From IMG/VR virus record IMGVR_UViG_2690316267_000013: a stretch of 10,743 bases of DNA; one strand, written 5' to 3'. The notes beneath the pieces were generated by a model. It saw only the letters and a list, made by a program, of their open reading frames with translations. It was not told the origin of the DNA and did not search any database. Each line of letters begins with the position of its first letter. Position 1 is the stretch's first letter. Shown here one piece after another: positions 1-10,704 of the stretch. Origin of the DNA: a virus (Duplodnaviria; Heunggongvirae; Uroviricota; Caudoviricetes). Both the position numbers and the translations under genes were made by a program.

Positions 1-2334
1 TCAGGTTGTTGCAGGGTCGTCACATTTTGGCAGCCAGTCGCCGTAGCTTTCCTCTTTCAGCGTCAGGTTGGTCTGTATCCCCTGTTTGGTATGGCGCTTC
101 TCGTAATTCAGTCCGTATTCCTTCAGCATCACCGGCAGCCCCAGCCCGAACATTTTCAGACTGAGTACGTTCCGGTAGCCGTTTGCCTCCATGTAGGCCA
201 GATAGGCGTGATAGAGGTATTTACGGTAATTGCGCGGGATGATACTCGCGTTCCCCATATACATGCCGCTGGTCTGCGGCAGGGTTTCCAGATAGCCGAT
301 AAAATCAAACGTCGGGTCGGCATCCCGTTTGATGTTCAGCGCCTCGTCTGAGTTCTGCTGGGACTGAAGCAGTGACCGGGCGAGCATCGGGTCGCTGAAC
401 TTCTGCATCAGGTGACGCACGATGACCGCCAGCTCGCGGGTGATTTTGTCCTTAAGCTGCGGGTCGCGCTCCTGCGGGGCTATCTGTTCCGGGAAGTGAA
501 TAATCACCCGCCGGCGTGACACGCCGCCGCTGCGGTCGGTGAAGCGCATCGGGTTATTGTTCACGGCCAGAATCACCGCCGGGATGTGCGTGGAGTACGC
601 ATCCCGGTATTTCGGGTCAACGGACACCGCATCGCCGCCGGTGATGGCCTTGAGTCCGGCTCCGTCGCCGCTCCATTTTTCCTGGTCCGGCAGGCGTATC
701 AGTGAGAAGCCAGTTAACGCGGCACGTTCACGCGGGGATTCCAGCGTCTCAATGGTGGCCGACGTGGCGTTATCTTCCCCGGCCAGCAGGGTGGCTATTT
801 CGGCCATGATACTTTTGCCGCTGCCGCCGGGACCGGTCACCTCCAGAAAGAGCTGCCAGTCGTAGCGGTTTGCCAGCACCATAAACAGTGCGGCCAGAAT
901 CACGTCGCGTTTTTCCGCACGACCACCGGCGGCACGGTCAAGCCAGCGCCAGAACGCGGGGGCGTGGGTTTCCAGCGTTTCCCCTTCCACCGGCGGGGTG
1001 AAATCCACATCGCACAGGGTGCGCATCCAGTGTGACGGACTGTGCGGGTGGAACGTGCCGCTCTGCGTGTCGAGCACGCCGTTACGAAAGCCAATCAGGC
1101 GGCGGGAGGGGGCTTCCTGCTGCGGAATAATCAGCTTCAGGGTGTCCACCACGGAGGCCACCTTCCCGGAGGAGAACGGCGCGCGCAGCCGCTGAAACAG
1201 CCCGGCCACATCCCGGGCAAAGTCCTGTGGTGGCAGCACCTTCCAGACACCATTTTCATAACGGGACAGAAGCTGGCCGTTGGCATCGACCGCGAGCGCC
1301 TCGCCGTAATGCTCATAGATACGCATGGCCTTTTCGCTGGTACTCATGGCGGAAAACTCCGCTTCGCTCATGGTGTCGAACGGGCTTTCAGCCGGTGGCC
1401 GGATGGCATCATAAATGGCCTTACGGGTGGCTTCCCCGCCGTACTGCGTGAAGGCATCATTCCAGTCACCGAAGACCGGCGGCAGGGCAACAACACCTTC
1501 ACACGCATCTGCGGCTGCGGCGGCTTTTGTCTGGCCGTCACCGCTGAGGTCACGGTCAGCAGCAAGGACAATATGACAGGCCGGATGCTTCTGCCGGGCA
1601 AGGCTGGCCAGAGAAAGGAGGTTCACGGAAGAAAGCGCCACCATCACCGTTTCACCGGTCAGGTGATGTACGGTAAGTGCGGTCGCGTATCCCTCCGCTA
1701 TCCACAGACGTTTTCCGGCCTGATTCTGTCCTTCAAGGGTGTGACAGGTGCCCCTGACCTGTCCGCCTTTCAGGGTACGCTTACGGCCGTCAGCACTGAT
1801 TAACTGAAGGTTAACCAGTTCGCCGCTGTCGTCATACAGTGGCACCACAAGGTCACCGGCGCGCCAGCTCACGCCACCGGCTCTGTGTGTGCCGGTCAGC
1901 ATCCGGCATTCCCGGCCGGGAAAGCCCTTGCGGGTCAGGTAGGCGTTACCGGTTCCGGGACGGGTTTTTGCCATCAGGGTTTGTGCCAGTGCGGCGGCGT
2001 TCTTCCGGGCAGCGTCTGTTTCAGCAACGGCGGCGGCCGTCACTGCCGGGTCAGCCGGGGGCAGACTGCCGGTCACGGCAGCCACCTTTGCGGCCGCGTC
2101 GGACGGGGAGACACCAAACACCTTTTCAACCAGTTTCAGGCCGTCACCGGCACCACACTGATTGCAGTACCAGGTGCCGCGCCCCTCCCTGTCATCAAAA
2201 CGGAAGCGGTCACTCCCGCCACAGACCGGACAGGGCTGATGACGGTTTTTCAGCACCTGAATCCCCAGCGCCGGGAGAATACGCGGCCAGTGGCCGAGCG
2301 CATGGCTGACGGTGGCGGTTACGTTCATTTTCAT
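1..2334 (-). CDS. alpha: P4-type alpha replication protein: zinc-ribbon/TOPRIM primase fused to a P-loop helicase, 777 aa
   Basis: N-terminal Cys4 motif (CPVCGG...CNQCG), TOPRIM acidic motif (LAADRD), Walker A (GPGGSGKS). Length is identical to P4 alpha. SD aaggag lies about 9 nt upstream of the ATG at 2332-2334. Stop codon at 1-3. Confidence 0.9.
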   Translation of the reverse strand: MKMNVTATVSHALGHWPRILPALGIQVLKNRHQPCPVCGGSDRFRFDDREGRGTWYCNQCGAGDGLKLVEKVFGVSPSDAAAKVAAVTGSLPPADPAVTAAAVAETDAARKNAAALAQTLMAKTRPGTGNAYLTRKGFPGRECRMLTGTHRAGGVSWRAGDLVVPLYDDSGELVNLQLISADGRKRTLKGGQVRGTCHTLEGQNQAGKRLWIAEGYATALTVHHLTGETVMVALSSVNLLSLASLARQKHPACHIVLAADRDLSGDGQTKAAAAADACEGVVALPPVFGDWNDAFTQYGGEATRKAIYDAIRPPAESPFDTMSEAEFSAMSTSEKAMRIYEHYGEALAVDANGQLLSRYENGVWKVLPPQDFARDVAGLFQRLRAPFSSGKVASVVDTLKLIIPQQEAPSRRLIGFRNGVLDTQSGTFHPHSPSHWMRTLCDVDFTPPVEGETLETHAPAFWRWLDRAAGGRAEKRDVILAALFMVLANRYDWQLFLEVTGPGGSGKSIMAEIATLLAGEDNATSATIETLESPRERAALTGFSLIRLPDQEKWSGDGAGLKAITGGDAVSVDPKYRDAYSTHIPAVILAVNNNPMRFTDRSGGVSRRRVIIHFPEQIAPQERDPQLKDKITRELAVIVRHLMQKFSDPMLARSLLQSQQNSDEALNIKRDADPTFDFIGYLETLPQTSGMYMGNASIIPRNYRKYLYHAYLAYMEANGYRNVLSLKMFGLGLPVMLKEYGLNYEKRHTKQGIQTNLTLKEESYGDWLPKCDDPATT

Positions 2335-2348
2335 GGTGTTGTTCTCCT

Positions 2349-2669
2349 TCAGTGCAGTACCGGCGCTTTTATGTGACGGGCACAGAGTTCATCCATCACA
2401 ACCAGCCCGAGAAAGGACAGCGACGGCGCGGCCTTCAGGGGGCCGGATTCCATTAAATCTTCCAGCAGGGCACAGGCTATCTGACGCCCTTTTTCCTCAC
2501 CGTGCTGGCGCAGATAAAAGCCTTCCAGCTCAGCGGCGATGGCCGCCTCCAGTGACTCAAGGGTGAGATGCGGGTAGCGGTGCTGACGTTCGCACACGGT
2601 CAGCCAGGCACAGGCGACAGCGCGACGGTAAAGGGCAGCGCGTAAGACGGGCGGTAAGGGTGTTTTCAT
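2349..2669 (-). CDS. cnr: 106-aa protein immediately upstream of alpha; Cnr-like (P4 copy-number regulator) by size and synteny
   Basis: ORF of 106 aa with SD gggagg about 7 nt upstream of the ATG. Its stop (2349-2351) overlaps the alpha SD region. Same size and position as P4 orf106/cnr. The functional call is by synteny only. Confidence 0.55.
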
Positions 2670-2804
2670 TTGCTTTCCTCCCTGTGACAGATGACTGCAT
2701 TCCGTGCCGGTTGCATTAACTGATAAGGCATATCTGCGTCTCCTGAAGACGTGCGTATCCCTGCGCGAATACGCACATTTAATTTTTCGGGTGTCGTTTT
2801 TTAA

Positions 2805-3260
2805 TTACAGATAATTGCGGTAACTGTTATCCGGGGTGATTTCCGGGTCAGGCTCCGTGCGGGGAATTTCCCGCCATTCCCGCGCCACCGGTGCCGCCCG
2901 GCTGACCGGAACAGTGTCCTGCGGGTAAATATCCAGATATTTCTCCCGCCATTTCTGTAATTCCGGGTCTCCGGCCATTTCTTTCAGTACCGCATGCCGG
3001 TTTACGGGGCTGCGTTTGAACAGGTCAGGACGGTCACAGGTAAATTCCCGCAGAAAACGCCCCAGCGGGATGTCTGTGGTGCGCCCGTCAGCGAGGATAC
3101 GCACAAGGATACTGAATTTACGGCGGTACGGGTTCCAGACAATGTCCGGGCAGCGGTACGGCATTTCCCACGGAATACCGTCTTCCAGAATGCCGACCAC
3201 GGCCACATCGGGAAAACCGGCAGAACGGTAAATCTCACCGGGCTGGGGAAAATCAAACAT
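2805..3260 (-). CDS. Hypothetical 151-aa left-operon protein (P4 orf151 position and size)
   Basis: ORF of 151 aa. Its ATG (3258-3260) overlaps the stop of the upstream 95-aa gene by 8 nt (ATGTTTGA), suggesting translational coupling. No motif recognised. Confidence 0.6.
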   Translation of the reverse strand: MFDFPQPGEIYRSAGFPDVAVVGILEDGIPWEMPYRCPDIVWNPYRRKFSILVRILADGRTTDIPLGRFLREFTCDRPDLFKRSPVNRHAVLKEMAGDPELQKWREKYLDIYPQDTVPVSRAAPVAREWREIPRTEPDPEITPDNSYRNYL

Positions 3261-3540
3261 GCGTCCTGTCTCCCCGGTCTTTCTGCTGGGCGAGAAAATC
3301 GCGGCACAGGCCTTTGGCTTTCAGCTCATTCAGCACAAAATCAATATCTTCATTCAGGTAGCTGAAAATATGCGGAATGTAGAGCTGATGCAGGCCGGAG
3401 AGTTCACGGTGAATCAAATCACCCCCAACAAACTGGGATACGGCGCTGGCGCGGTTGAGCTTATGGTAAGCCTCAATGCTGAGGTGTTCACGGGCGTCAT
3501 GACGTGCTGAGACGGTCTGAGGGGCTTTTTTATTACGCAC
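3253..3540 (-). CDS. 95-aa protein with GTG start; possible equivalent of P4 epsilon (helper-prophage derepression) by position
   Basis: GTG at 3538-3540 is preceded by a strong SD (GGAGG, 6-nt spacer). It reads to TGA at 3253-3255. The ORF track merges this into a longer 177-aa ORF, but the SD-GTG context supports the 95-aa product. The functional call is positional only. Confidence 0.45.
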
Positions 3541-3730
3541 GGGACACCTCCACCACCGGCAGACGGGCAGCAAGGGAGAGCACATAGTCACGGACAAGGG
3601 AACGGCGGGCGCTGCGTTCATCACCGGCGACGGTGCGAAGCATACAGATACGGGGATGACGGCCTGCGCGACGGACAGCCGCAAACACAAAGACAAATTC
3701 AGGGTGTGAGGGGGTAAGGGTTGTAGCCAT
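3533..3730 (-). CDS. 65-aa first ORF of the left operon, Kil-like by position; its SD overlaps a seqC-like RNA target site
   Basis: ATG at 3728-3730 with SD AAGGAGG (plus-strand 3739-3745). Its stop overlaps the GTG of the next gene (GTGCGTAA). The ORF track extends this frame to 199 aa, but the upstream part is low-complexity and covers the immunity RNA region. Confidence 0.45.
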
Positions 3731-3741
3731 GATGGCAGCCT

Positions 3742-3782
3742 CCTTGAAGTAACAGTTACAGCTACCACTGGAGTTCCTACGC
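3742..3782 (-). promoter_or_regulatory. seqC-like target site (ccttgaagtaac ... gagttcctacgc) complementary to seqB of the candidate CI RNA
   Basis: Shares two sequence blocks with the site at 3963-3990. Both blocks are complementary to 3805-3828. Overlaps the SD of the 65-aa ORF. Confidence 0.5.
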
Positions 3783-3789
3783 TCATGGG

Positions 3790-3875
3790 TGGTAGCCCGG
3801 ACGGGGGTAGGAATACCGGCCTTCAAGGAAACCGGCCAGCCCGAAGGCTGCCCCGCCCGGACCACCATTATCTGA
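3790..3875 (-). ncRNA. cI: Candidate CI-like immunity RNA containing a seqB element (approximate boundaries)
   Basis: Non-coding stretch between the two target-like sites. It contains 3805-3828 (gggggtaggaataccggccttcaagg), the reverse complement of blocks in both flanking sites. A stable hairpin with a UUCG tetraloop on the minus-strand RNA lies at 3837-3850, and a possible closing stem pairs ggtggtccgg with ccgggctaccacc. Ends were not determined. Confidence 0.4.
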
Positions 3876-3962
3876 CAGAGGCTACGGTTTAAAAACCACA
3901 GCCAGAAAAACAGGTGTGCCGAAGCAACGACGTAAAAAAAGACGCATGGCGCGTCATATGTC

Positions 3963-3990
3963 GCCTTGAAGTAACTCGGGTTCCTACGCC
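3963..3990 (-). promoter_or_regulatory. seqA-like target site in the leader of the early leftward transcript
   Basis: ccttgaagtaac at 3964-3975 and ggttcctacgcc at 3979-3990, both complementary to the seqB-like element at 3805-3828. Confidence 0.5.
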
Positions 3991-4018
3991 CGGCTGCCGA
4001 TTTTGCGGCAGCGGAAAA

Positions 4019-4048
4019 ACTATATCCGCAAATGCCGGAAAAAGGCAA
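4019..4048 (-). promoter_or_regulatory. Candidate sigma70 early leftward promoter (PLE-like)
   Basis: On the minus strand: -35 TTGCCT (4043-4048), 18-nt spacer, -10 TATAGT (4019-4024). This would start the transcript about 20 nt upstream of the seqA-like site. By eye only. Confidence 0.35.
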
Positions 4049-4083
4049 GCCAGAAAAAGGGAGTTTTTGCAGAGCGGGCATCA

Positions 4084-4350
4084 TCATGCGTCGTACCCCC
4101 GTTTGCGTCCGGCAATGCGTCCGGCCATCCATGCGGTGACTTCAGAGTGCAGCCAGGCCACATTTTTACCGCCAAGACTCACCTGCGGCGGAAATTCCCC
4201 CTTACGGATGAGTTCATAGATGGTCGAGCGTGACAGGCCGCACAGGTGCATCACTTCCGGCAGACGTAAAAAACGCTCCTGCGTGATGTCCGGCAGCGGC
4301 ATCAGTGGCGTCACAGGGGCGGGAGACGGGGAAGAAAAAACAGCTTGCAT
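4084..4350 (-). CDS. vis: Vis/AlpA-family small HTH DNA-binding protein (late-promoter regulator and excision factor), 88 aa
   Basis: 88-aa ORF with SD gaggt about 7 nt upstream of the ATG. AlpA-like signature (LRLPEV...[16 protein letters not shown]). Same size and position as P4 vis (orf88). Confidence 0.75.
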
Positions 4351-4452
4351 CGGGCTACCTCGTTAATGTCCATACAGCACCGGATAAGTCCGTCCGGCTT
4401 CGGGTAGCGCTTTATTTTGTGAATATTTTTGGCAGACGCAACAGGGGGGATT

Positions 4453-4470
4453 TGTTCCGGCAGCCTTACA
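4453..4470 (-). promoter_or_regulatory. TGT-N12-ACA box (Delta/Ogr-type activator site) for the leftward late promoter (PLL-like) upstream of vis
   Basis: TGTtccggcagccttACA with exact 12-nt spacing, centred about 110 bp upstream of the vis ATG. Confidence 0.4.
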
Positions 4471-4496
4471 ATGACTGTGTGTTTTTTGTTCATTCC

Positions 4497-4525
4497 CACT
4501 TAAAGTCATTTAAAGCCACTTAAAG
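4497..4525. repeat. Three tandem 10-bp repeats CA(C/T)TTAAAG with one-helical-turn periodicity
   Basis: cacttaaag at 4497-4505, catttaaag at 4507-4515, cacttaaag at 4517-4525. Confidence 0.6.
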
Positions 4526-4629
4526 CAATTCGTAATTTTTATAGTGAAATACAAATCGTTTCTTCTTATTCATTCACGGCGAATTAATAAAAACAAACAG
4601 TAGTAAACAGCACAAAAAGTCCATGAGCG

Positions 4630-4733
4630 GGTGAACAGTGGTGAACAGACGGTGAACAGTCATTACTGCGATTGTTCACCCTTTAACTTACTGTATTACT
4701 TATCTTTTTTCTTATGGTGAACAGAGGTGAACA
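4630..4733. repeat. Iteron cluster: six copies of the P4 type-I octamer TGTTCACC (five as GGTGAACA, one inverted); putative alpha-binding origin
   Basis: GGTGAACA at 4630-4637, 4640-4647, 4651-4658, 4716-4723 and 4726-4733; TGTTCACC at 4673-4680. The cluster is flanked by a direct repeat aaacaaacagta at 4591-4602 and 4748-4759. Confidence 0.6.
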
Positions 4734-4812
4734 GTAAAATATAAAAAAACAAACAGTAAGCCGGTTTTTCCTGCGACCTTTTCCTGGCTTGCCGGTCTGA
4801 GGATGAGTCTCC

Positions 4813-4830
4813 TGTGTCAGGGCTGGCACA
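4813..4830 (+). promoter_or_regulatory. TGT-N12-ACA box (Delta/Ogr-type activator site) of the sid late promoter (Psid-like)
   Basis: TGTgtcagggctggcACA with exact 12-nt spacing, centred about 80 bp upstream of the sid ATG, consistent with a -55 activator site. Confidence 0.5.
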
Positions 4831-4902
4831 TCTGCAATGCGTCGTGTTGTTGTCCGGTGTACGTCACAATTTTCTTAATCTGAAGTGACGAGGAGCCGGA
4901 AA

Positions 4903-5637
4903 ATGTCTGACAACACCATCCCTGAATATCTGCAACCCGCACTGGCACAACTGGAAAAGGCCAGAGCCGCTCATCTTGAGAACGCCCGACTGATGGATGA
5001 GACCGTCAAGGCCATTGAACGGGCAGAGCAGGAAAAAAATGCGCTGGCGCAGGCCGACGGAAATGACGCTGATGACTGGCGCACAGCCTTTCGTGCAGCC
5101 GGTGGTGTCCTGAGCGACGAGCTGAAACAGCGCCACATTGAGCGCGTGGCACGCCGGGAGCTGGTACAGGAATATGACAATCTGGCCGTGGTGCTGAATT
5201 TTGAACGTGAACGCCTGAAAGGGGCGTGTGACAGCACGGCCACCGCCTACCGGAAGGCACATCATCACCTTCTGAGTCTGTATGCAGAGCATGAGCTGGA
5301 ACACGCCCTGAATGAAACCTGTGAGGCGCTTGTCCGGGCAATGCATCTGAGTATCCTGGTACAGGAAAATCCGCTCGCCAACACCACCGGCCATCAGGGC
5401 TACGTCGCACCGGAAAAGGCTGTCATGCAGCAGGTGAAATCATCGCTGGAACAGAAAATTAAACAGATGCAAATCAGCCTCACCGGCGAGCCGGTTCTCC
5501 GGCTGACCGGACTGTCAGCGGCAACACTCCCGCACATGGATTATGAGGTGGCAGGCACACCGGCACAGCGCAAGGTGTGGCAGGACAAAATAGACCAGCA
5601 GGGAGCAGAGCTTAAGGCCAGAGGACTGCTGTCATGA
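4903..5637 (+). CDS. sid: Sid, capsid size-determination external scaffold protein, 244 aa
   Basis: ATG at 4903 preceded by SD aggag with a 7-nt spacer; the ORF track starts 18 nt earlier at an in-frame GTG at 4885. Length from the ATG equals P4 Sid. Coiled-coil-like, Ala/Glu/Leu-rich sequence. Stop overlaps the delta start (ATGA). Confidence 0.85.
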   Translation: MSDNTIPEYLQPALAQLEKARAAHLENARLMDETVKAIERAEQEKNALAQADGNDADDWRTAFRAAGGVLSDELKQRHIERVARRELVQEYDNLAVVLNFERERLKGACDSTATAYRKAHHHLLSLYAEHELEHALNETCEALVRAMHLSILVQENPLANTTGHQGYVAPEKAVMQQVKSSLEQKIKQMQISLTGEPVLRLTGLSAATLPHMDYEVAGTPAQRKVWQDKIDQQGAELKARGLLS

Positions 5638-6134
5638 TTTACTGCCCGTCGTGTGGACATGTTGCTCACACCCGTCGCGCACATTTCATGGACGATGGCA
5701 CCAAGATAATGATTGCACAGTGCCGGAATATTTATTGCTCTGCGACATTTGAAGCGAGTGAAAGCTTTTTCTCTGACAGTAAAGATTCAGGAATGGAATA
5801 CATTTCAGGCAAACAGAGATACCGCGATTCACTGACGTCGGCCTCCGGCAGTATGAAACGCCCGAAAAGAATGCTTGTTACCGGATATTGTTGTCGGAGA
5901 TGTAAAGGCCTTGCACTGTCAAGAACATCGCGGCGTCTGTCTCAGGAAGTCACCGAGCGTTTTTATGTGTGCACGGATCCGGGCTGTGGTCTGGTGTTTA
6001 AAACGCTTCAGACCATCACCCGCTTCATTGTCCGCCCGGTCACGCCGGACGAACTGGCAGAACGCCTGCATGAAAAACAGGAACTGCCGCCAGTACGGTT
6101 AAAAACACAATCATATTCGCTGCGTCTGGAATGA
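5634..6134 (+). CDS. delta: Delta, late transcription activator with two Ogr-like zinc-finger modules, 166 aa
   Basis: Two Cys4 modules (CPSCGH...CRNIYC and CRRCKG...CTDPGC). Length equals P4 Delta. Start is coupled to the sid stop. Confidence 0.85.
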   Translation: MIYCPSCGHVAHTRRAHFMDDGTKIMIAQCRNIYCSATFEASESFFSDSKDSGMEYISGKQRYRDSLTSASGSMKRPKRMLVTGYCCRRCKGLALSRTSRRLSQEVTERFYVCTDPGCGLVFKTLQTITRFIVRPVTPDELAERLHEKQELPPVRLKTQSYSLRLE

Positions 6135-6207
6135 GGGCTGCCGGTTAACACCGGCCGTCGCCACACACCGTATTTTTATTCTTCAGCATGATGAGAAAGA
6201 GATAACG

Positions 6208-6780
6208 ATGGAAAGCACAGCCTTACAGCAGGCCTTTGACACCTGTCAGAATAACAAAGCAGCATGGCTGCAACGCAAAAATGAGCTGGCTGCGGCCGAA
6301 CAGGAATATCTGCGGCTTCTGTCAGGAGAAGGCAGAAACGTCAGTCGCCTGGACGAATTACGCAATATTATCGAAGTCAGAAAATGGCAGGTGAATCAGG
6401 CCGCCGGTCGTTATATTCGTTCGCATGAAGCCGTTCAGCACATCAGCATCCGCGACCGGCTGAATGATTTTATGCAGCAGCACGGCACAGCACTGGCGGC
6501 GGCACTGGCACCGGAGCTGATGGGCTACAGTGATCTGACGGCCATTGCCCGAAACTGTGCCATACAGCGTGCCACAGATGCCCTGCGTGAAGCCCTCCTG
6601 TCCTGGCTTGCGAAGGGTGAAAAAATTAATTATTCCGCACAGGATAGCGACATTTTAACGACCATCGGATTCAGGCCTGACGCGGCTTCGGTGGATGACA
6701 GCCGTGAAAAATTCACCCCTGCGCAGAACATGATTTTTTCGCGTAAAAGTGCGCAACTGGCATCACGTCAGTCTGTGTAA
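6208..6780 (+). CDS. psu: Psu, polarity suppression (Rho antagonist) and capsid decoration protein, 190 aa
   Basis: 190-aa ORF, last gene of the sid-delta-psu operon, directly upstream of cos. Same length and position as P4 Psu. Confidence 0.85.
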   Translation: MESTALQQAFDTCQNNKAAWLQRKNELAAAEQEYLRLLSGEGRNVSRLDELRNIIEVRKWQVNQAAGRYIRSHEAVQHISIRDRLNDFMQQHGTALAAALAPELMGYSDLTAIARNCAIQRATDALREALLSWLAKGEKINYSAQDSDILTTIGFRPDAASVDDSREKFTPAQNMIFSRKSAQLASRQSV

Positions 6781-6810
6781 AATTCCCCGAAAATCCGCCC
6801 GTTTTTACTG

Positions 6811-6849
6811 AAAAAAGCCATGCATCGATAAGGTGCATGGCTTTGCATG
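6811..6849. terminator. Hairpin terminator after psu, bidirectional (strong on minus strand, weaker on plus)
   Basis: 9-bp stem agccatgca/tgcatggct (6816-6824 and 6834-6842) with a 9-nt loop. It is flanked by A6 on the left (a U6 tract for minus-strand transcripts) and ttgcatgcgttt on the right. Confidence 0.5.
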
Positions 6850-6944
6850 CGTTTCCCTGCCTCATTTTCTGCAGACCGCGCCATTCCCGGCGCGGTCTGA
6901 GCGTGTCAGTGCAACTGCATTAAAACCGCCCCGCAAAGCGGGCG

Positions 6945-6963
6945 GGCGAGGCGGGGAAAGCAC
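6945..6963. other. cos site: 19-nt P2/P4-type cohesive-end sequence GGCGAGGCGGGGAAAGCAC
   Basis: Exact match to the 19-nt cohesive end shared by P2 and P4 as I recall it. Located between psu and the cargo gene, as in P4. Flanked by inverted repeats at 6872-6899 and 6977-7015. Confidence 0.7.
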
Positions 6964-7198
6964 TGCGCGCCCCCGGTTGGTGCTCGTTACTAATGTTTTT
7001 TGCGCCCGAGCACCGTCGGGAAGGGGCTGGGGGGGATAGGGGAGGTGCCTGACGTCGCGCGGTAATGTTGGTAAGTGTGCCGCTGATGGCTTCTGAGGGG
7101 AGTGGTAAATAGCCGCCTTTCGACGGTGTAGTGGGGAGAGTATTGCTTACAAACGTAATGAAATTGTTTGAGTAGCTAGGCTACTGCATAGGATTATT

Positions 7199-7228
7199 TT
7201 GTTCTGTTAATATATCCGTTAATATAGA
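7199..7228 (+). promoter_or_regulatory. Candidate sigma70 promoter of the cargo gene
   Basis: -35 TTGTTC (7199-7204), about 18-nt spacer, -10 TATAGA (7223-7228) in an AT-rich stretch. Direct repeat gttaatata at 7202/7205-7213 and 7219-7227 overlaps the spacer. By eye only. Confidence 0.3.
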
Positions 7229-7254
7229 TAGATTGATCCAATTGAGTTTAAGGA

Positions 7255-8964
7255 ATGAGTATGTTTCAGATATCAGCTGGAGTGTTCTTTGATTTAGATA
7301 AAATAGAAAAACACGATGGCACATTTGTTTTTTATTCAAATGTTGATGTGTCTTTCTCGGTGGAAAACACCTCCCCTCTTTTTAAAGCAAATAAAATAAG
7401 TCATGATGGTATAAACTGTTATGTGGTAAACTATACTCTCCTGACCGAAAAACCAGAACGAATTGAAGCTGGAGTCGTAGTTAGGGCTGGTGATGAGGAT
7501 TATAGGCAACAATTTATTTTATTATGGGAATTCTATTTTGATTGTGTGGCTAGAGTAGAAAAAGAATCGGTTAAAAAAATATGTGCATTATCAAATTTTA
7601 ATAAACATCACTCAAAAATTGCGCTTGAAGTTGCCCCATATTTAGTGGAGATTAATCGAAGAGTTTCATTTGATGATGTCTCTGGGTTTTCTGCTTTTAT
7701 TAAAGATGTAGTGAATCTAAATAGATCTGCCTTTAAATCTTTAATGGCAGCGTTAAAAATAATTAGTGATTCAAAAGAATCATTGTCAACCAACTTTGAC
7801 CTGACTTATTCCATGTTAGTCTATGCCTTGGAGTCTTTGTCTCAAAGAAATGATAACTATAAGTCTGATTGGGATGACTACGATCAAAAAACCAGAGGTG
7901 AATTAGAGTCTGTATTTGAGCATATGCCTGGTGAGGATGTTTGTAAAATTAAATCAATACTTATTGAAGGCAAACAATTCAGATTACAAAAAAGGTTCAA
8001 AGATTTTATACTGAAAAATCTTGAAGAAAATTATTTCAATGAAACAGAGAGATATCCAATCCGCTATAGCTTCCTTAGTAGAGCTTTAGATAATTTATAC
8101 AAAATCAGGTCTTCTTTTGTCCATGAGCTTAAGCCACTTGATGCAATGATCTCGAAAGCCTACAATCCTGTTGGTGATTGTCTGGTTCTTTTTGGCGAAC
8201 CTCACTTCAGTTACTCTGGATTGCTTCGACTTCTTCGCCATGTGATAATAAATTTTTGCCGTAAAAACTACAGTCAAAAAAGAGAGTCTGTTAATTGGGT
8301 GATGGAAACATCGGGTGTAATGGTTGCAGAGATATCTGCACAATATTGGCTCTGGAATGCAGACGGATTTACAGCTAAAAGTATAGCGAAGTGGTTTAGT
8401 GAATACCTAAATATGTTAAATTTAGGCGAAGTCACTGATTTGCAGTCTATCATGGACAAAATTGAGATAATCTATGATCAATCCAAAAAAGAATATAAAA
8501 ATGGGTTGTTGCATTTTTATTTCTTATATAACTTAATGCATAATGGAAATAAGGGTGAATGGCTTGAGTTTGCGAACAAGCGAAGTTCTATACTTGTTTG
8601 TGATATATATTGGTATTCATGCTCTCCATATTTATATAAATCATTTACTAATGTTTCAAATGGTATTGCTGATATAAAAACATTGAGAAACTTTTTGTCT
8701 TGTTTTAACGAATATGATAAAAATAAATTTAAGCCAAATCGTTTAAATCTCCCTGCAATGACCGAAGTAATTATGTTGGCTTGCGCAGCAAATTCATTCT
8801 TCAGAATTGGAATGTATCAAGACTATGTTTTAATGGGCAATAGAGCGATGAGAGAAATTGCTTCAGTAAAAGATGTATTTTATTATATAAAAGAACGATT
8901 AAGTAATTCACAACTTATTGAATTGGACGAGTGCTTGAGATTGTATAGAAAAAAGGGGGGCTAA
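7255..8964 (+). CDS. Low-GC cargo protein of unknown function in the cos-int hotspot (569 aa from the first ATG; 567 aa from the better-placed ATG at 7261); candidate anti-phage or abortive-infection protein
   Basis: Long uninterrupted ORF with SD aagga 6 nt before the ATG at 7261. Composition is AT-rich and Lys/Asn/Ile/Phe/Tyr-rich, contrasting with the GC-rich satellite core. No Walker A and no YxDD motif. One R-x4-H motif (IRSSFVHE, codons at 8104-8127). Occupies the position where P4 carries gop-beta-cII. Confidence 0.8.
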   Translation: MSMFQISAGVFFDLDKIEKHDGTFVFYSNVDVSFSVENTSPLFKANKISHDGINCYVVNYTLLTEKPERIEAGVVVRAGDEDYRQQFILLWEFYFDCVARVEKESVKKICALSNFNKHHSKIALEVAPYLVEINRRVSFDDVSGFSAFIKDVVNLNRSAFKSLMAALKIISDSKESLSTNFDLTYSMLVYALESLSQRNDNYKSDWDDYDQKTRGELESVFEHMPGEDVCKIKSILIEGKQFRLQKRFKDFILKNLEENYFNETERYPIRYSFLSRALDNLYKIRSSFVHELKPLDAMISKAYNPVGDCLVLFGEPHFSYSGLLRLLRHVIINFCRKNYSQKRESVNWVMETSGVMVAEISAQYWLWNADGFTAKSIAKWFSEYLNMLNLGEVTDLQSIMDKIEIIYDQSKKEYKNGLLHFYFLYNLMHNGNKGEWLEFANKRSSILVCDIYWYSCSPYLYKSFTNVSNGIADIKTLRNFLSCFNEYDKNKFKPNRLNLPAMTEVIMLACAANSFFRIGMYQDYVLMGNRAMREIASVKDVFYYIKERLSNSQLIELDECLRLYRKKGG

Positions 8965-8980
8965 CCCCTTTTATTTTTAA
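8949..8980. terminator. Bidirectional intrinsic terminator shared by the convergent cargo and int genes
   Basis: aaaagggggg-ctaa-cccctttt hairpin (G/C stem 8955-8968) with T-tracts on both sides (tttatttttaa on plus; U6 on minus). The stop codons of both genes (8962-8964 and 8961-8963) lie inside the loop. Confidence 0.5.
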
Positions 8981-10157
8981 CGTATTCTCCCCACCAATCC
9001 ATCAATTCAATTCGCTGCACGAGATAAGTAGAACGATTGTATGCTTTTCTAACTTCATTTTTATCACTGTGGGCTAAGGCAGACTCGATAACATCAGGAT
9101 TTAATCCAGCTTCATTCATGGCTGTACTTGCTATTGAACGTAATCCATGGGCAACTAATTTTCCGCCAAAACCAATACGTTTTAAAGCTGCATTTGCAGT
9201 CTGACTGTTCATTGGTTTCTTTGGGTCATTCCGACTCGGAAAAACATATTCACGATGAGCACTAATAGGCTTCATCACATTAAGAATCTCTAATGCCTGA
9301 GATGATAGAGGAATTATGTGTTCCCGTTTAGCCTTCATCCGTTCGGCAGGAATCGTCCAGAGCTTTGCATGAAGATCGATTTCTTCCCACCGAGTACTGG
9401 AGGCTTCAGAAGGGCGCACAAGAGTCAGGAGTTGCCATTCAATTAGACAGCGAGTCGGGATAGACAGATTTGACATGACTAAAGAACGCATCAGCTTTGG
9501 TAATTCTTCAGGTCGAAGCGTCGGCATGTTTTGTTTTTTTGGCTTTTCGAAGGCCATGCCAACACCTGATGCTGGGTTTGCATCAATCAAGCCAGTGTTA
9601 ACCGCATAAATCATTATTTCGTTAATGCGTTGCACCAGACGACGTACAGTCTCTAATGCCCCACGAGCTTTGACTGGCTCAAGTGCTTCGACCAATGTTC
9701 TAGCTTTGATCTGCTGAACGGGCATCTCACCAACGGCGGGGAATACATCTTTTTCCAATGAGCGCCAAATATCTTTTGCATAATCAGGGGTAACACTTTT
9801 GCTTTTGAGCTGAAACCAATTAGCGGCGACCGTCGAGAAAATACTGTCCTGTGCGATTTGCTGCTGTTCCTCTGCAATTTCAGCTTGAATTTGCGGGTCA
9901 ATTCCGTTGGCTAACAAGGAAAGGTAATCCGCTCTTAAGCGTCGGGCGTCAGCAAGTGAAAGGGCTGGGAAGGCTCCTAGCCCCATCATTGTCCGTTGCT
10001 TTGTTGCCGGACGTTGATAACGGAAACGCCATAACTTCTTACCGTTCGTTTTAACGAGTAGAAAAAGACCATCGCCATCATGCAACGTTAGATCCTTTTC
10101 TAACGCTTTAGCGCGCAGTACTTCTGTGTTGGTCAGGGGGCGTGTCGTTCTTGCCAA
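8961..10157 (-). CDS. int: P4-type tyrosine integrase (N-terminal arm-binding domain plus catalytic domain), 398 aa, TTG start
   Basis: N-terminus typical of P4-family integrases (LTNTEV...GLFLLVKTNGKKLWRFRYQ...LGAFPALSLADAR). Catalytic-type HGLR and C-terminal Tyr region (RKAYNRSTY). SD gaaggag lies 8 nt upstream of the TTG at 10155-10157. Adjacent to and co-oriented with ssrA. Confidence 0.9.
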   Translation of the reverse strand: MARTTRPLTNTEVLRAKALEKDLTLHDGDGLFLLVKTNGKKLWRFRYQRPATKQRTMMGLGAFPALSLADARRLRADYLSLLANGIDPQIQAEIAEEQQQIAQDSIFSTVAANWFQLKSKSVTPDYAKDIWRSLEKDVFPAVGEMPVQQIKARTLVEALEPVKARGALETVRRLVQRINEIMIYAVNTGLIDANPASGVGMAFEKPKKQNMPTLRPEELPKLMRSLVMSNLSIPTRCLIEWQLLTLVRPSEASSTRWEEIDLHAKLWTIPAERMKAKREHIIPLSSQALEILNVMKPISAHREYVFPSRNDPKKPMNSQTANAALKRIGFGGKLVAHGLRSIASTAMNEAGLNPDVIESALAHSDKNEVRKAYNRSTYLVQRIELMDWWGEYVKNKRG

Positions 10158-10176: not shown

Positions 10177-10230
10177 ATTGGTATACGCGTTTAGGTATAC
10201 ATCCTACCGTATACCTAAACGTATACCAAT
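10177..10230. promoter_or_regulatory. Imperfect palindrome with four GGTATAC motifs between the int SD and ssrA; candidate Int/Vis operator or attP arm-type sites
   Basis: Left arm attggtatacgcgtttaggtatac (10177-10200) and right arm gtatacctaaacgtataccaat (10209-10230) are near-perfect reverse complements separated by 8 bp. GGTATAC occurs at 10180-10186 and 10194-10200, and inverted at 10209-10215 and 10222-10228. Confidence 0.5.
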
Positions 10231-10341: not shown

Positions 10342-10704
10342 TGGTGGAGCTGGCGGGAGTTGAACCCGCGTCCGAAATTCCTACATCCTCGGTACTACAT
10401 GCTTAGTCAGTCTTTACATTCGCTTGCCAGCTGCGGACGGACACGCCACTAACAAACTAGCCTGATTAAGTTTTAACGCTTCAACCCCAGGCAGGGCTTC
10501 CACGCGATCTCTTTTGGGTTTGACCTCTCTTGATCCCCGTCCTAAGAGCGGAGGCTAGGGAGAGAGGGCTCTAAGCAGGTTATTAAGCTGCTAAAGCGTA
10601 GTTTTCGTCGTTTGCGACTATTTTTTGCGGCTTTTTACGAGGCCAACCGCCCCTCGGCATGCACCTTGGGTTTCGCAAATCCCGTCGAATCCAGAATCAG
10701 CCCC
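10342..10704 (-). ncRNA. ssrA: tmRNA (SsrA), 363 nt, enterobacterial type
   Basis: The reverse complement reads GGGGCTGATTCTGGATTCGACGGG ... and ends ...GTTCAACTCCCGCCAGCTCCACCA, matching E. coli tmRNA as I recall it. It includes the tag-peptide reading frame GCAAACGACGAAAACTACGCTTTAGCAGCTTAA (ANDENYALAA stop) at 10583-10615. Confidence 0.95.

Follow-up and report, generated by a model that had tools for sequence, protein, structure and literature searches.

Conserved sequence boxes and palindromes at the cos site of a P4-type satellite prophage integrated at ssrA

Introduction

How much of the DNA around a cohesive-end site serves packaging? The question is raised by a 10,743-nt stretch of viral DNA (hereafter the window) in which the 19-nt cohesive end of phages P2 and P4 lies among several inverted repeats. 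An earlier note on this DNA took the intact cos to mean that the element can still be packaged by a P2-type terminase, and proposed the flanking palindromes as candidates for terminase recognition or for the insulation of the late operon. The cos site itself is already known, being a textbook element, and what possibly goes beyond its current description is only an extended tripartite conservation.

As judged from its gene content and from its alignment with P4, the region very probably represents the cos of a P4-type satellite prophage that is intact and lies at ssrA. According to the established biology of P2 and P4, excision and alpha-dependent replication would convert such an element into a circle of ~10.85 kb, which the terminase of a P2-family helper (gpM and gpP) would cut at cos. 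The linear genome, with the cargo gene first and psu last, would then be packed into small capsids remodeled by Sid. In the following sections, the element and its cos core are described first, and the palindromes are then considered in the light of helper and satellite relatives.

Results and discussion

A P4-like satellite at ssrA

By sequence comparison, the window corresponds to what reads as a complete P4-like satellite of E. coli, integrated at ssrA and with a size of ~10.85 kb. Positions 1-6944 are 98% identical to P4 4636-11624, that is, from alpha to cos, and chromosomal DNA 100% identical to the window is found in several E. coli strains; E. coli ATCC 8739 carries an element with 98.4% identity. 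None of the genes alpha, orf151, epsilon, orf88/vis, sid, delta, and psu is truncated, and their products share 98 to 100% amino acid identity with the P4 proteins. The last gene of the late operon (sid-delta-psu) is psu, at 6208-6780 on the plus strand (Pfam Psu, E 1.6e-88; 98.9% amino acid identity to P4 Psu), whose end falls 165 nt short of the cohesive end; Pfam also matched Ogr_Delta among the window proteins. Moreover, an Rfam scan of the window located the P4 immunity RNAs (C4/CI, c4-a1b1, and isrK) at 3785-4025, and two 120-nt crr repeats stand directly to the left of the window.

The other end of the element is formed by a tyrosine integrase gene at 8961-10157 on the minus strand (Pfam Phage_integrase, Phage_int_M, and Arm-DNA-bind_3), whose product is only 36% identical to P4 Int, and by ssrA (tmRNA) at 10342-10704, also on the minus strand, which serves as the attachment target in the chromosome and delimits the element (Rfam RF00023, 295.8 bits, and annotation). 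A partial repeat of the ssrA 3' end is present at the other side, 10.85 kb from its partner and beside paired arm-type repeats. The annotated order in NZ_CP144928 is ypjA, alpha primase-helicase, DUF5375, two small ORFs, an icd-like gene, and an HTH regulator, followed by sid, ogr/delta, psu, a hypothetical protein, the integrase, and ssrA. Thus, the features by which a P4-like satellite is recognized (core genes, integrase, CI (C4) RNA, and crr) are all found in this element. In the immunity region, RefSeq marks one pseudogene of the 'ash family'.

Many P4-like islands of E. coli are degraded, as exemplified by CP4-57, which occupies this ssrA site in K-12, and the cos site could be the dead relic of a cryptic, immobile prophage. 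How common such islands are and the pseudogene in the immunity region are the points that speak for this explanation. Nonetheless, the genes for replication, derepression, capsid size, and late control are conserved over their full length, as described above; the CI RNA, the crr repeats, the integrase, and the att repeat are all present; the cos core is nearly identical to that of P4; and a genome of ~10.85 kb suits the P4 capsid. A relic is therefore very improbable, and the same observations support the intactness of the element that carries the cos. For an intact P4-type satellite with a P4-like cos core, packaging by a P2-type helper would be the expected behavior.

The cohesive end and the 55-bp core

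The 19-nt cohesive end GGCGAGGCGGGGAAAGCAC, quoted in PMC3931495, occupies 6945-6963 on the plus strand and is identical to P4 nt 1-19 and to the annotated P2 cosL/cosR, which confirms the exact match that had been noted before. When compared with phage records by blastn, 6700-6944 matches the last 245 nt of P4 with 98.8% identity, and the match stops precisely where P4 itself ends on the right, its nt 11624 being window 6944. By this alignment, the mature ends of P4 map exactly to 6944|6945. The terminase would be expected to nick the top strand at this point and the bottom strand at 6963|6964, the second position following from a 5' overhang of 19 nt, so that 19-nt 5' cohesive ends would be left.

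Around the cohesive end, the 55-bp P2/P4 cos core (29 bp to the left of the nick, the 19-nt end, and TGCGCGC) is located at 6916-6970. The same block is obtained when the two ends of the P4 genome, or those of P2, are joined. Its alignment shows 54 identities out of 55 with P4 and 53 out of 55 with P2, in agreement with the identification of the site as a P2/P4 cos. In the accessible text of PMC9594776, PMC5694545, and PMC3931495, this conserved core is attributed to Ziermann & Calendar 1990 and is the only sequence named as a packaging requirement; the recognized packaging signal is the published core at 6916-6970. Both hallmarks of the P2/P4 family are found here, namely the core and an exact 19-nt end, even though the family admits 186-type variants of the latter. 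The position of the site is also that of satellites, between the end of psu at 6780 and the start of the cargo gene at 7255, with int at 8961-10157.

Next to the left nick, the core contains a CCGCCC-N8-GGGCGG dyad (6926-6945), a G+C hairpin that was absent from the earlier note. It is kept as sequence, not as structure: its predicted fold is no better than those of shuffled sequences (z -1.2), and its outermost pair is broken in 11 of 21 P4-like relatives. This nick-proximal hairpin, on the minus strand and inside the conserved core, was the sole call of a pattern-based terminator scan. An ORF at 6833-7039 (68 amino acids, GTG start) was rejected as spurious, since it spans the cleavage site in conserved non-coding DNA.

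Palindromes around cos and their chance expectation

The three inverted repeats previously described are all present. The first, AAAGCCATGCA-N9-TGCATGGCTTT, extends over 6814-6844 with perfect 11-bp arms (6814-6824 and 6834-6844), which corrects by ~2 nt the limits given before (6816-6842). The second, CAGACCGCGCC-N6-GGCGCGGTCTG, is a G+C-rich dyad centered at -59.5 (6872-6899; arms 6872-6882 and 6889-6899), of 11 perfect base pairs exactly as had been reported. For the third, GGTGCTCG-N20-CGAGCACC, which has 8-bp arms (6979-6986 and 7007-7014) and a T-rich loop (+16 to +51; 6979-7014), a similar correction of ~2 nt applies (6977-7015 before).

To evaluate how often such repeats arise by chance, 6811-7015 was subjected to 5000 rounds of dinucleotide shuffling. 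Inverted repeats whose arms reach 11 bp or more appear in 0.18% of the shuffles (p ~0.002 for each of the 11-bp repeats), and those whose arms reach 8 bp or more, with a loop of 3 to 20 nt, appear in 9.4%. Both 11-bp repeats are far beyond chance, whereas the 8-bp repeat alone is within it. As for RNA folding, the second repeat has the lowest z score against shuffles (-4.7), followed by the first (-3.9) and the third (-3.3, for a 51-nt segment). No RNA family was found by Rfam in the cos region, neither when the window was scanned at the gathering threshold nor for 6700-7300 at E<=1.

Boxes at fixed distances from the nick in helpers and satellites

For the comparison, 120 IMG/VR contigs with the exact 19-mer were collected, 93 of them classed by their neighboring genes as P2-like (gpQ on the right) and 20 as P4-like (psu on the left), along with 120 more bearing the 186-type end GGCGTGGCGGGGARAGCAT (75 P2-like and 35 P4-like). 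A search for Psu in genome contigs contributed six P4-like loci from other genera, a small sampling of satellites across genera. All sequences were stacked on the nick without gaps, and the box offsets were counted from the first base of the cohesive end. Two groups of P2-like left flanks are used below: set 1, with 61 flanks dereplicated to <70% identity, and set 2, an independent group of 35 flanks of 186-type cos.

When ~100 dereplicated cos regions of the P2-like and P4-like classes are considered, the conserved part extends from ~-124 to +7 (window 6821-6970). The left flank of P2-like phages is a hotspot of its own and is extremely variable; its information content is zero to the left of ~-125, and the 60 bp between the conserved blocks are also highly variable. 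The leftmost conserved block, block A (6820-6849), comprises ATGCAT at 6820-6825 (TGCA at -124), TGCAT at 6834-6838 (-111), and TGCAT at 6844-6848 (-101). In set 1, 56% of the flanks have a TGCA that begins at -111 and 59% have one that begins at -101, figures that rise to 79% and 82% with a tolerance of +/-1 nt, and a box at -121 to -125 is present in 52%. In set 2, the values for -111 and -101 are 74% and 69%. With a background of 0.5% per position for TGCA, these boxes are more than 100-fold enriched at their positions in helper phages. Closer to the nick, two further TGCA boxes (TGCAACTGCAT; 6910-6920) lie at -35 and -29, the second of them being the start of the 55-bp core, and they are found in 80% and 92% of set 1 and in 89% and 97% of set 2.

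In the helpers, the boxes at -121, -111, and -101 show a phasing of ~10 bp and an exact spacing to the nick. The P2-like consensus for -124 to -96 is tgcat.cattaggTGCATgaaTTTGCATt, compared with TGCATCGATAAGGTGCATGGCTTTGCATG in the window. Block A is also kept in P4-like elements of Enterobacter, Tatumella, Citrobacter, Kluyvera, and Photorhabdus. In the P4-like elements, the complementarity around the self-complementary TGCA boxes is stretched to 7 to 11 bp. The first hairpin is thus built from the -124 and -111 boxes.

A second conserved block is the GGCGCGG box (6889-6895; -56 to -50), which lies in the right arm of the second palindrome, is the part of that palindrome that is conserved, and is found at the same offset in many P2-like helpers. 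The P4-like consensus, CCCGGCGCGGyCTGAGC, is kept even in elements whose Psu is only 38 to 62% identical, and the P2-like consensus at -65 to -47 is gCCAG.gCTGGCgcGGcTt (186-type set and many P2-like phages); the left arm of the palindrome is not conserved. Also, the perfect 11-bp palindrome is found in this variant alone: the G at position 6874 is replaced by A in P4, which is left with 8 pairs, and 19 other relatives have 0 to 8. Dyads centered at -59.5 are common to the P4-like elements and a subset of the P2-like elements. However, in a scan for dyad symmetry over the 61 P2-like left flanks of set 1 the signal at -59.5 is weak (z 2.7), and for this reason a conserved cruciform is not claimed.

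Pairing and possible transcriptional punctuation in the left flank

If the palindromes acted as structures, pairing should be maintained among relatives. In 21 distinct P4-like left flanks, the three left-hand helices are paired in 90%, 71%, and 80% of the cells, the first two values corresponding to the first and second palindromes. In the first palindrome, nothing has changed except for GC to GU and, once, AU to UA. In the second, the inner GCGCC/GGCGC pairs are usually kept, and the outer pairs are broken in most P4-like relatives. Taking the 27 pairs of the three helices over the 21 sequences, just five cells are changed on both sides, and the changes amount to one GC-to-GU replacement, a few isolated cells, and many broken pairs. 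Two-sided pair changes in these helices are no better than in shuffles (219 of 500). The covariation score and the percentage of paired cells do exceed nearly all shuffles (2 of 500 and 0 of 500), although related sequences can produce such values without any structure. A reading of the left helices based on structure was accordingly rejected, two-sided changes being no commoner than in shuffles.

These data bear on the idea that the palindromes are extruded as DNA hairpins or cruciforms whose shape is read by the terminase. The two perfect 11-bp repeats, each beyond chance, their strong predicted folds, and the dyad center shared at -59.5 by the P4-like elements and some P2-like elements speak for such a model. 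Against it, compensatory changes were not found in the 21 P4-like sequences; the second repeat is perfect only here, the P2-like dyad signal is weak, and the nick hairpin folds no better than shuffles. The pairing data across relatives weakly refute the cruciform model, which we regard as quite improbable. Constraint appears to act on the sequence of the boxes and on their spacing, and not on hairpin formation, which suggests that the first two palindromes are largely by-products of self-complementary boxes.

A different alternative is that the palindromes serve only as transcriptional punctuation, the first hairpin terminating the late operon and blocking antisense transcription from the cargo side and the other palindromes being incidental, with all of the cos function residing in the 55-bp core. 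The first palindrome is indeed terminator-like on both strands. Its RNA fold is predicted at -22 kcal/mol, the minus-strand stem is followed by UUUUUU, and the plus-strand tail UUUGCAUGCGUUU (UUUG..UUU) is a weak U-tract that in relatives from other genera becomes UUUU after the stem. A consensus terminator scan left this hairpin uncalled, its loop of 9 nt being above the limit of 8. Moreover, Psu blocks Rho, and with Rho blocked an intrinsic terminator after psu would make sense. The restriction of the named packaging requirement to the 55-bp core, in the accessible text of the three papers mentioned above, also agrees with punctuation.

Nevertheless, the TGCAT boxes stand at the same offsets in P2-like helpers, where there is no psu operon end and the neighboring genes vary. 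A terminator would keep its pairing and its U-tract, not the sequence of the boxes and an exact distance to the nick, and the second palindrome lacks a U-tract on both strands. Punctuation as the whole explanation is thus rather unlikely, yet it deserves to be kept in view. As one part of the picture it fares better: the first hairpin, placed between the late operon and cos, probably doubles as an intrinsic terminator that works in both directions. In this likely dual role, it would end late transcription and block antisense transcription from the cargo side. The suggestion that the palindromes insulate the late operon is plausible for the first hairpin only, whose shape is terminator-like, above all on the minus strand. 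The suggestion of terminase recognition survives in another form, since the two left palindromes sit on blocks conserved at fixed distances in helpers and satellites; what is conserved there is the boxes (TGCAT and GGCGCGG) and not the pairing, for which no meaningful covariation was detected.

A possible extension of the packaging signal

Between two hotspots of fast turnover, block A and the GGCGCGG dyad are the only islands to be kept, each at an exact distance from the nick. Helpers and satellites have both blocks in common, and the only machinery that they share at this place is the terminase. On these grounds, a role of both blocks as accessory sites of recognition or architecture (docking or bending) for the packaging machinery is a serious possibility, which we put forward tentatively. 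A broader proposal, to be held with still more reserve, is that the P2/P4 packaging signal is a module of ~150 bp (-124 to +7), larger than the textbook 55 bp. Such a module would consist of three phased TGCAT boxes (-124/-121, -111, and -101) and the GGCGCGG dyad (-59.5) at fixed spacing from the nick, boxes and dyad together forming an array on which the small terminase subunit, or else a host bending protein, could dock. Flanked by defense-gene hotspots on either side, helpers and satellites would have been trimmed by them to exactly this module.

The closest known object is the cos of P4 (NC_001609/X51522, with its junction at nt 11624/nt 1). The cohesive end is identical in both elements and stands in the same place after psu, and the 164 nt from psu to the nick contain no more than two substitutions (6855 and 6874). 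The first hairpin and the second dyad are shared, the latter with 8 perfect pairs in P4 and 11 here. On the other hand, everything beyond +7 is different, with gop, beta, and cII in P4 and a 569-aa ORF here, and the integrase and the attachment site also differ. The attachment site of P4 is leuX, instead of the ssrA used by this element.

A comparison with P2 (NC_001895, Peduoviridae) separates the conserved blocks from their surroundings. P2 has the identical 19-nt end and TGCAT boxes at ~-123, -111, -101, and -29, whereas between the blocks no relationship is left. On its right side, the P2 cos is followed by an intergenic region of P2's own that leads to gpQ, and on its left side the place of psu is taken by the old/tin hotspot. 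P2 also lacks a good copy of the GGCGCGG dyad and the TGCA box at -35. P2 is a fully functional phage, and therefore neither the GGCGCGG block nor the -35 box is essential. The P2 substrate has been described, reportedly by Pruss & Calendar and Bowden & Modrich, as monomeric circles, not concatemers.

In the cos of lambda (cosQ-cosN-cosB), a nick site that yields 5' cohesive ends of 12 nt is combined with sites for accessory proteins at fixed distances. The site described here would be similar in logic, but not in sequence or layout: its ends are of 19 nt, and the conserved candidate accessory blocks are one-sided, at the right end of the mature genome. In a literature search, TGCAT boxes, cosB, or gpM binding in P2-like phages were not found, although further papers may cover them.

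The ~100 independent cos contexts mark which flanking bases are constrained (window 6821-6970), and in this sense they are modestly useful. The conserved boxes become a candidate binding array for the P2 small terminase, and the map of constraint could be turned into a design rule for P2/P4 cosmid and phage-like-particle vectors. In published work, transduction efficiency differs widely, and in an unexplained manner, between cos fragments of different length (PMC9594776).

The right flank and the cargo gene

To the right of the cohesive end, the situation is different. P4-like right flanks share TGCGCGC (up to +7), and then all similarity is lost; beyond +7, the right flank of the window shows no similarity to P4. 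In several P2-like phages, cargo is inserted between cos and gpQ, and divergence also begins right after +7. Moreover, the flank at 6964-7254 is present in 19 of 5426 complete E. coli genomes, in the company of the cargo gene WP_000486481. The third palindrome, part of a variable hotspot cassette, falls outside the conserved signal because the similarity ends at +7. In consequence, it reads as cargo-linked DNA with no role in cos, and the earlier assignment of this repeat to the cos region is not supported.

The right palindrome and its T-rich loop could instead be a cosB-like site derived from a helper, acquired by recombination with a P2-like phage at cos. Right flanks of P2-like phages do contain a T-run hairpin, GGTGCTGA-N10-TCAGC, at a similar offset, followed by a box CTGAGCGCG, and relative to it the palindrome of the window would amount to two compensatory changes; recombination through the cohesive ends has been proposed by Rousset et al. 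(PMC9122126). Nonetheless, the similarity of the two right flanks beyond +7 is marginal (z 2.8; 7 of 300 shuffles), and the candidate of a 'P2-like right flank' was rejected because most of its signal came from the shared core. The module is also absent from P4, from most P4-like elements, and from several P2-like phages with right-hand cargo; chance alone produces 8-bp repeats whose loop does not exceed 20 nt in 9% of shuffled sequences; and the flank travels with one rare cargo gene. A helper-derived cosB-like site is thus improbable.

The cargo ORF itself (569 amino acids, WP_000486481; 7255-8964, plus strand) would come first among the genes of the packaged genome, at its left end. The hotspot of P4-like elements, between psu/cos and int, directly adjoins cos, and the window is one more instance of those already catalogued, its ORF being listed as 'hypothetical' P4-hotspot cargo in Table S1 of Rousset et al. 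2022 (PMC9122126). If the prophage is, as its sequence suggests, a mobilizable P4-type satellite, this gene could spread by helper-mediated transduction. No Pfam family was matched by the product of the cargo ORF. A weak PADLOC match to Cas13-ApeA was obtained for it (E 7e-6).

Cargo DNA and sequence tracts to the right of cos

Some P2-like prophages (L013, L022, L055, L096, L101, and L102 among the loci collected for comparison) have cos separated from the portal gene gpQ by 1 to 3 kb of additional DNA, and this insert constitutes a second cargo position, on the other side of cos from the described old/tin hotspot. A comparison of the DNA following the cohesive end shows that, in most P2-like phages, the GCGCGCT that comes after it has its complement in a conserved CTGAGCGCG box located ~40 nt downstream. 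In these P2-like loci, both elements flank the A/T-rich tract ATTTATTTT, giving a long and imperfect dyad between +2 and +50 to the right of cos (for example, in L108, L039, and L058). P4 does not have this long dyad, and neither do P2-like phages with cargo to the right of cos.

Further right, a G-rich tract (GGGGGGGATAGGGG) is observed at window positions 7033 to 7046, and L050, a P4-like locus with unrelated cargo, holds a near-exact counterpart (GGGGGGGATAGTGG) at an equal offset, being +58 to +72 past TGCGCGC. Also, the tract resembles GAGGGGGGATGACGGGG, found ~135 nt to the right of the P2 cos. A GTG-started ORF of 68 amino acids (6833-7039, plus strand) runs over the cos cleavage site and is almost certainly spurious.

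The hotspot cargo itself is an ORF of 569 amino acids (7255-8964, plus strand; WP_000486481), which Rousset 2022 (PMC9122126) entered as a "hypothetical" P4-hotspot cargo. No Pfam family was found for it, and the PADLOC match of residues 150-275 to the HEPN-type protein Cas13-ApeA is only weak (E 7e-6). Among 5426 complete Escherichia coli genomes, just 19 contain the DNA flank upstream of this ORF. The ORF is put forward as a candidate uncharacterized defense gene.

Integration site, immunity region, and a related contig

The element lies integrated at the ssrA 3' end (tmRNA; 10342-10704, minus strand), adjoining ypjA, and CP4-57 occupies this same site in K-12. At the far junction, ~10.85 kb off, the end of ssrA is repeated as an imperfect 18-nt sequence (3498-3515 and 14346-14363 in L002, the longer locus holding the window). 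The integrase of the element shares only 36% identity with P4 Int. Moreover, tandem CGTATACC(T/A)A(A/T) repeats make up a 23-nt unit with one copy near either element end (L002 3569-3591 and 14207-14229, the latter at window ~10207-10229), the copies being 96% identical; these units are probably arm-type integrase binding sites.

The P4 immunity region (3785-4025, minus strand) is intact. It holds the C4/CI antisense RNA (3785-3872), the c4-a1b1 target (3973-4025), and isrK (3935-4012), each of which scores above its Rfam gathering threshold.

Finally, L125 (URND01000141.1), labeled "uncultured Clostridiales bacterium", has a psu-cos region that is 99% identical, and it has the look of a P4-like contig from E. 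coli that was wrongly binned into a metagenome-assembled genome.
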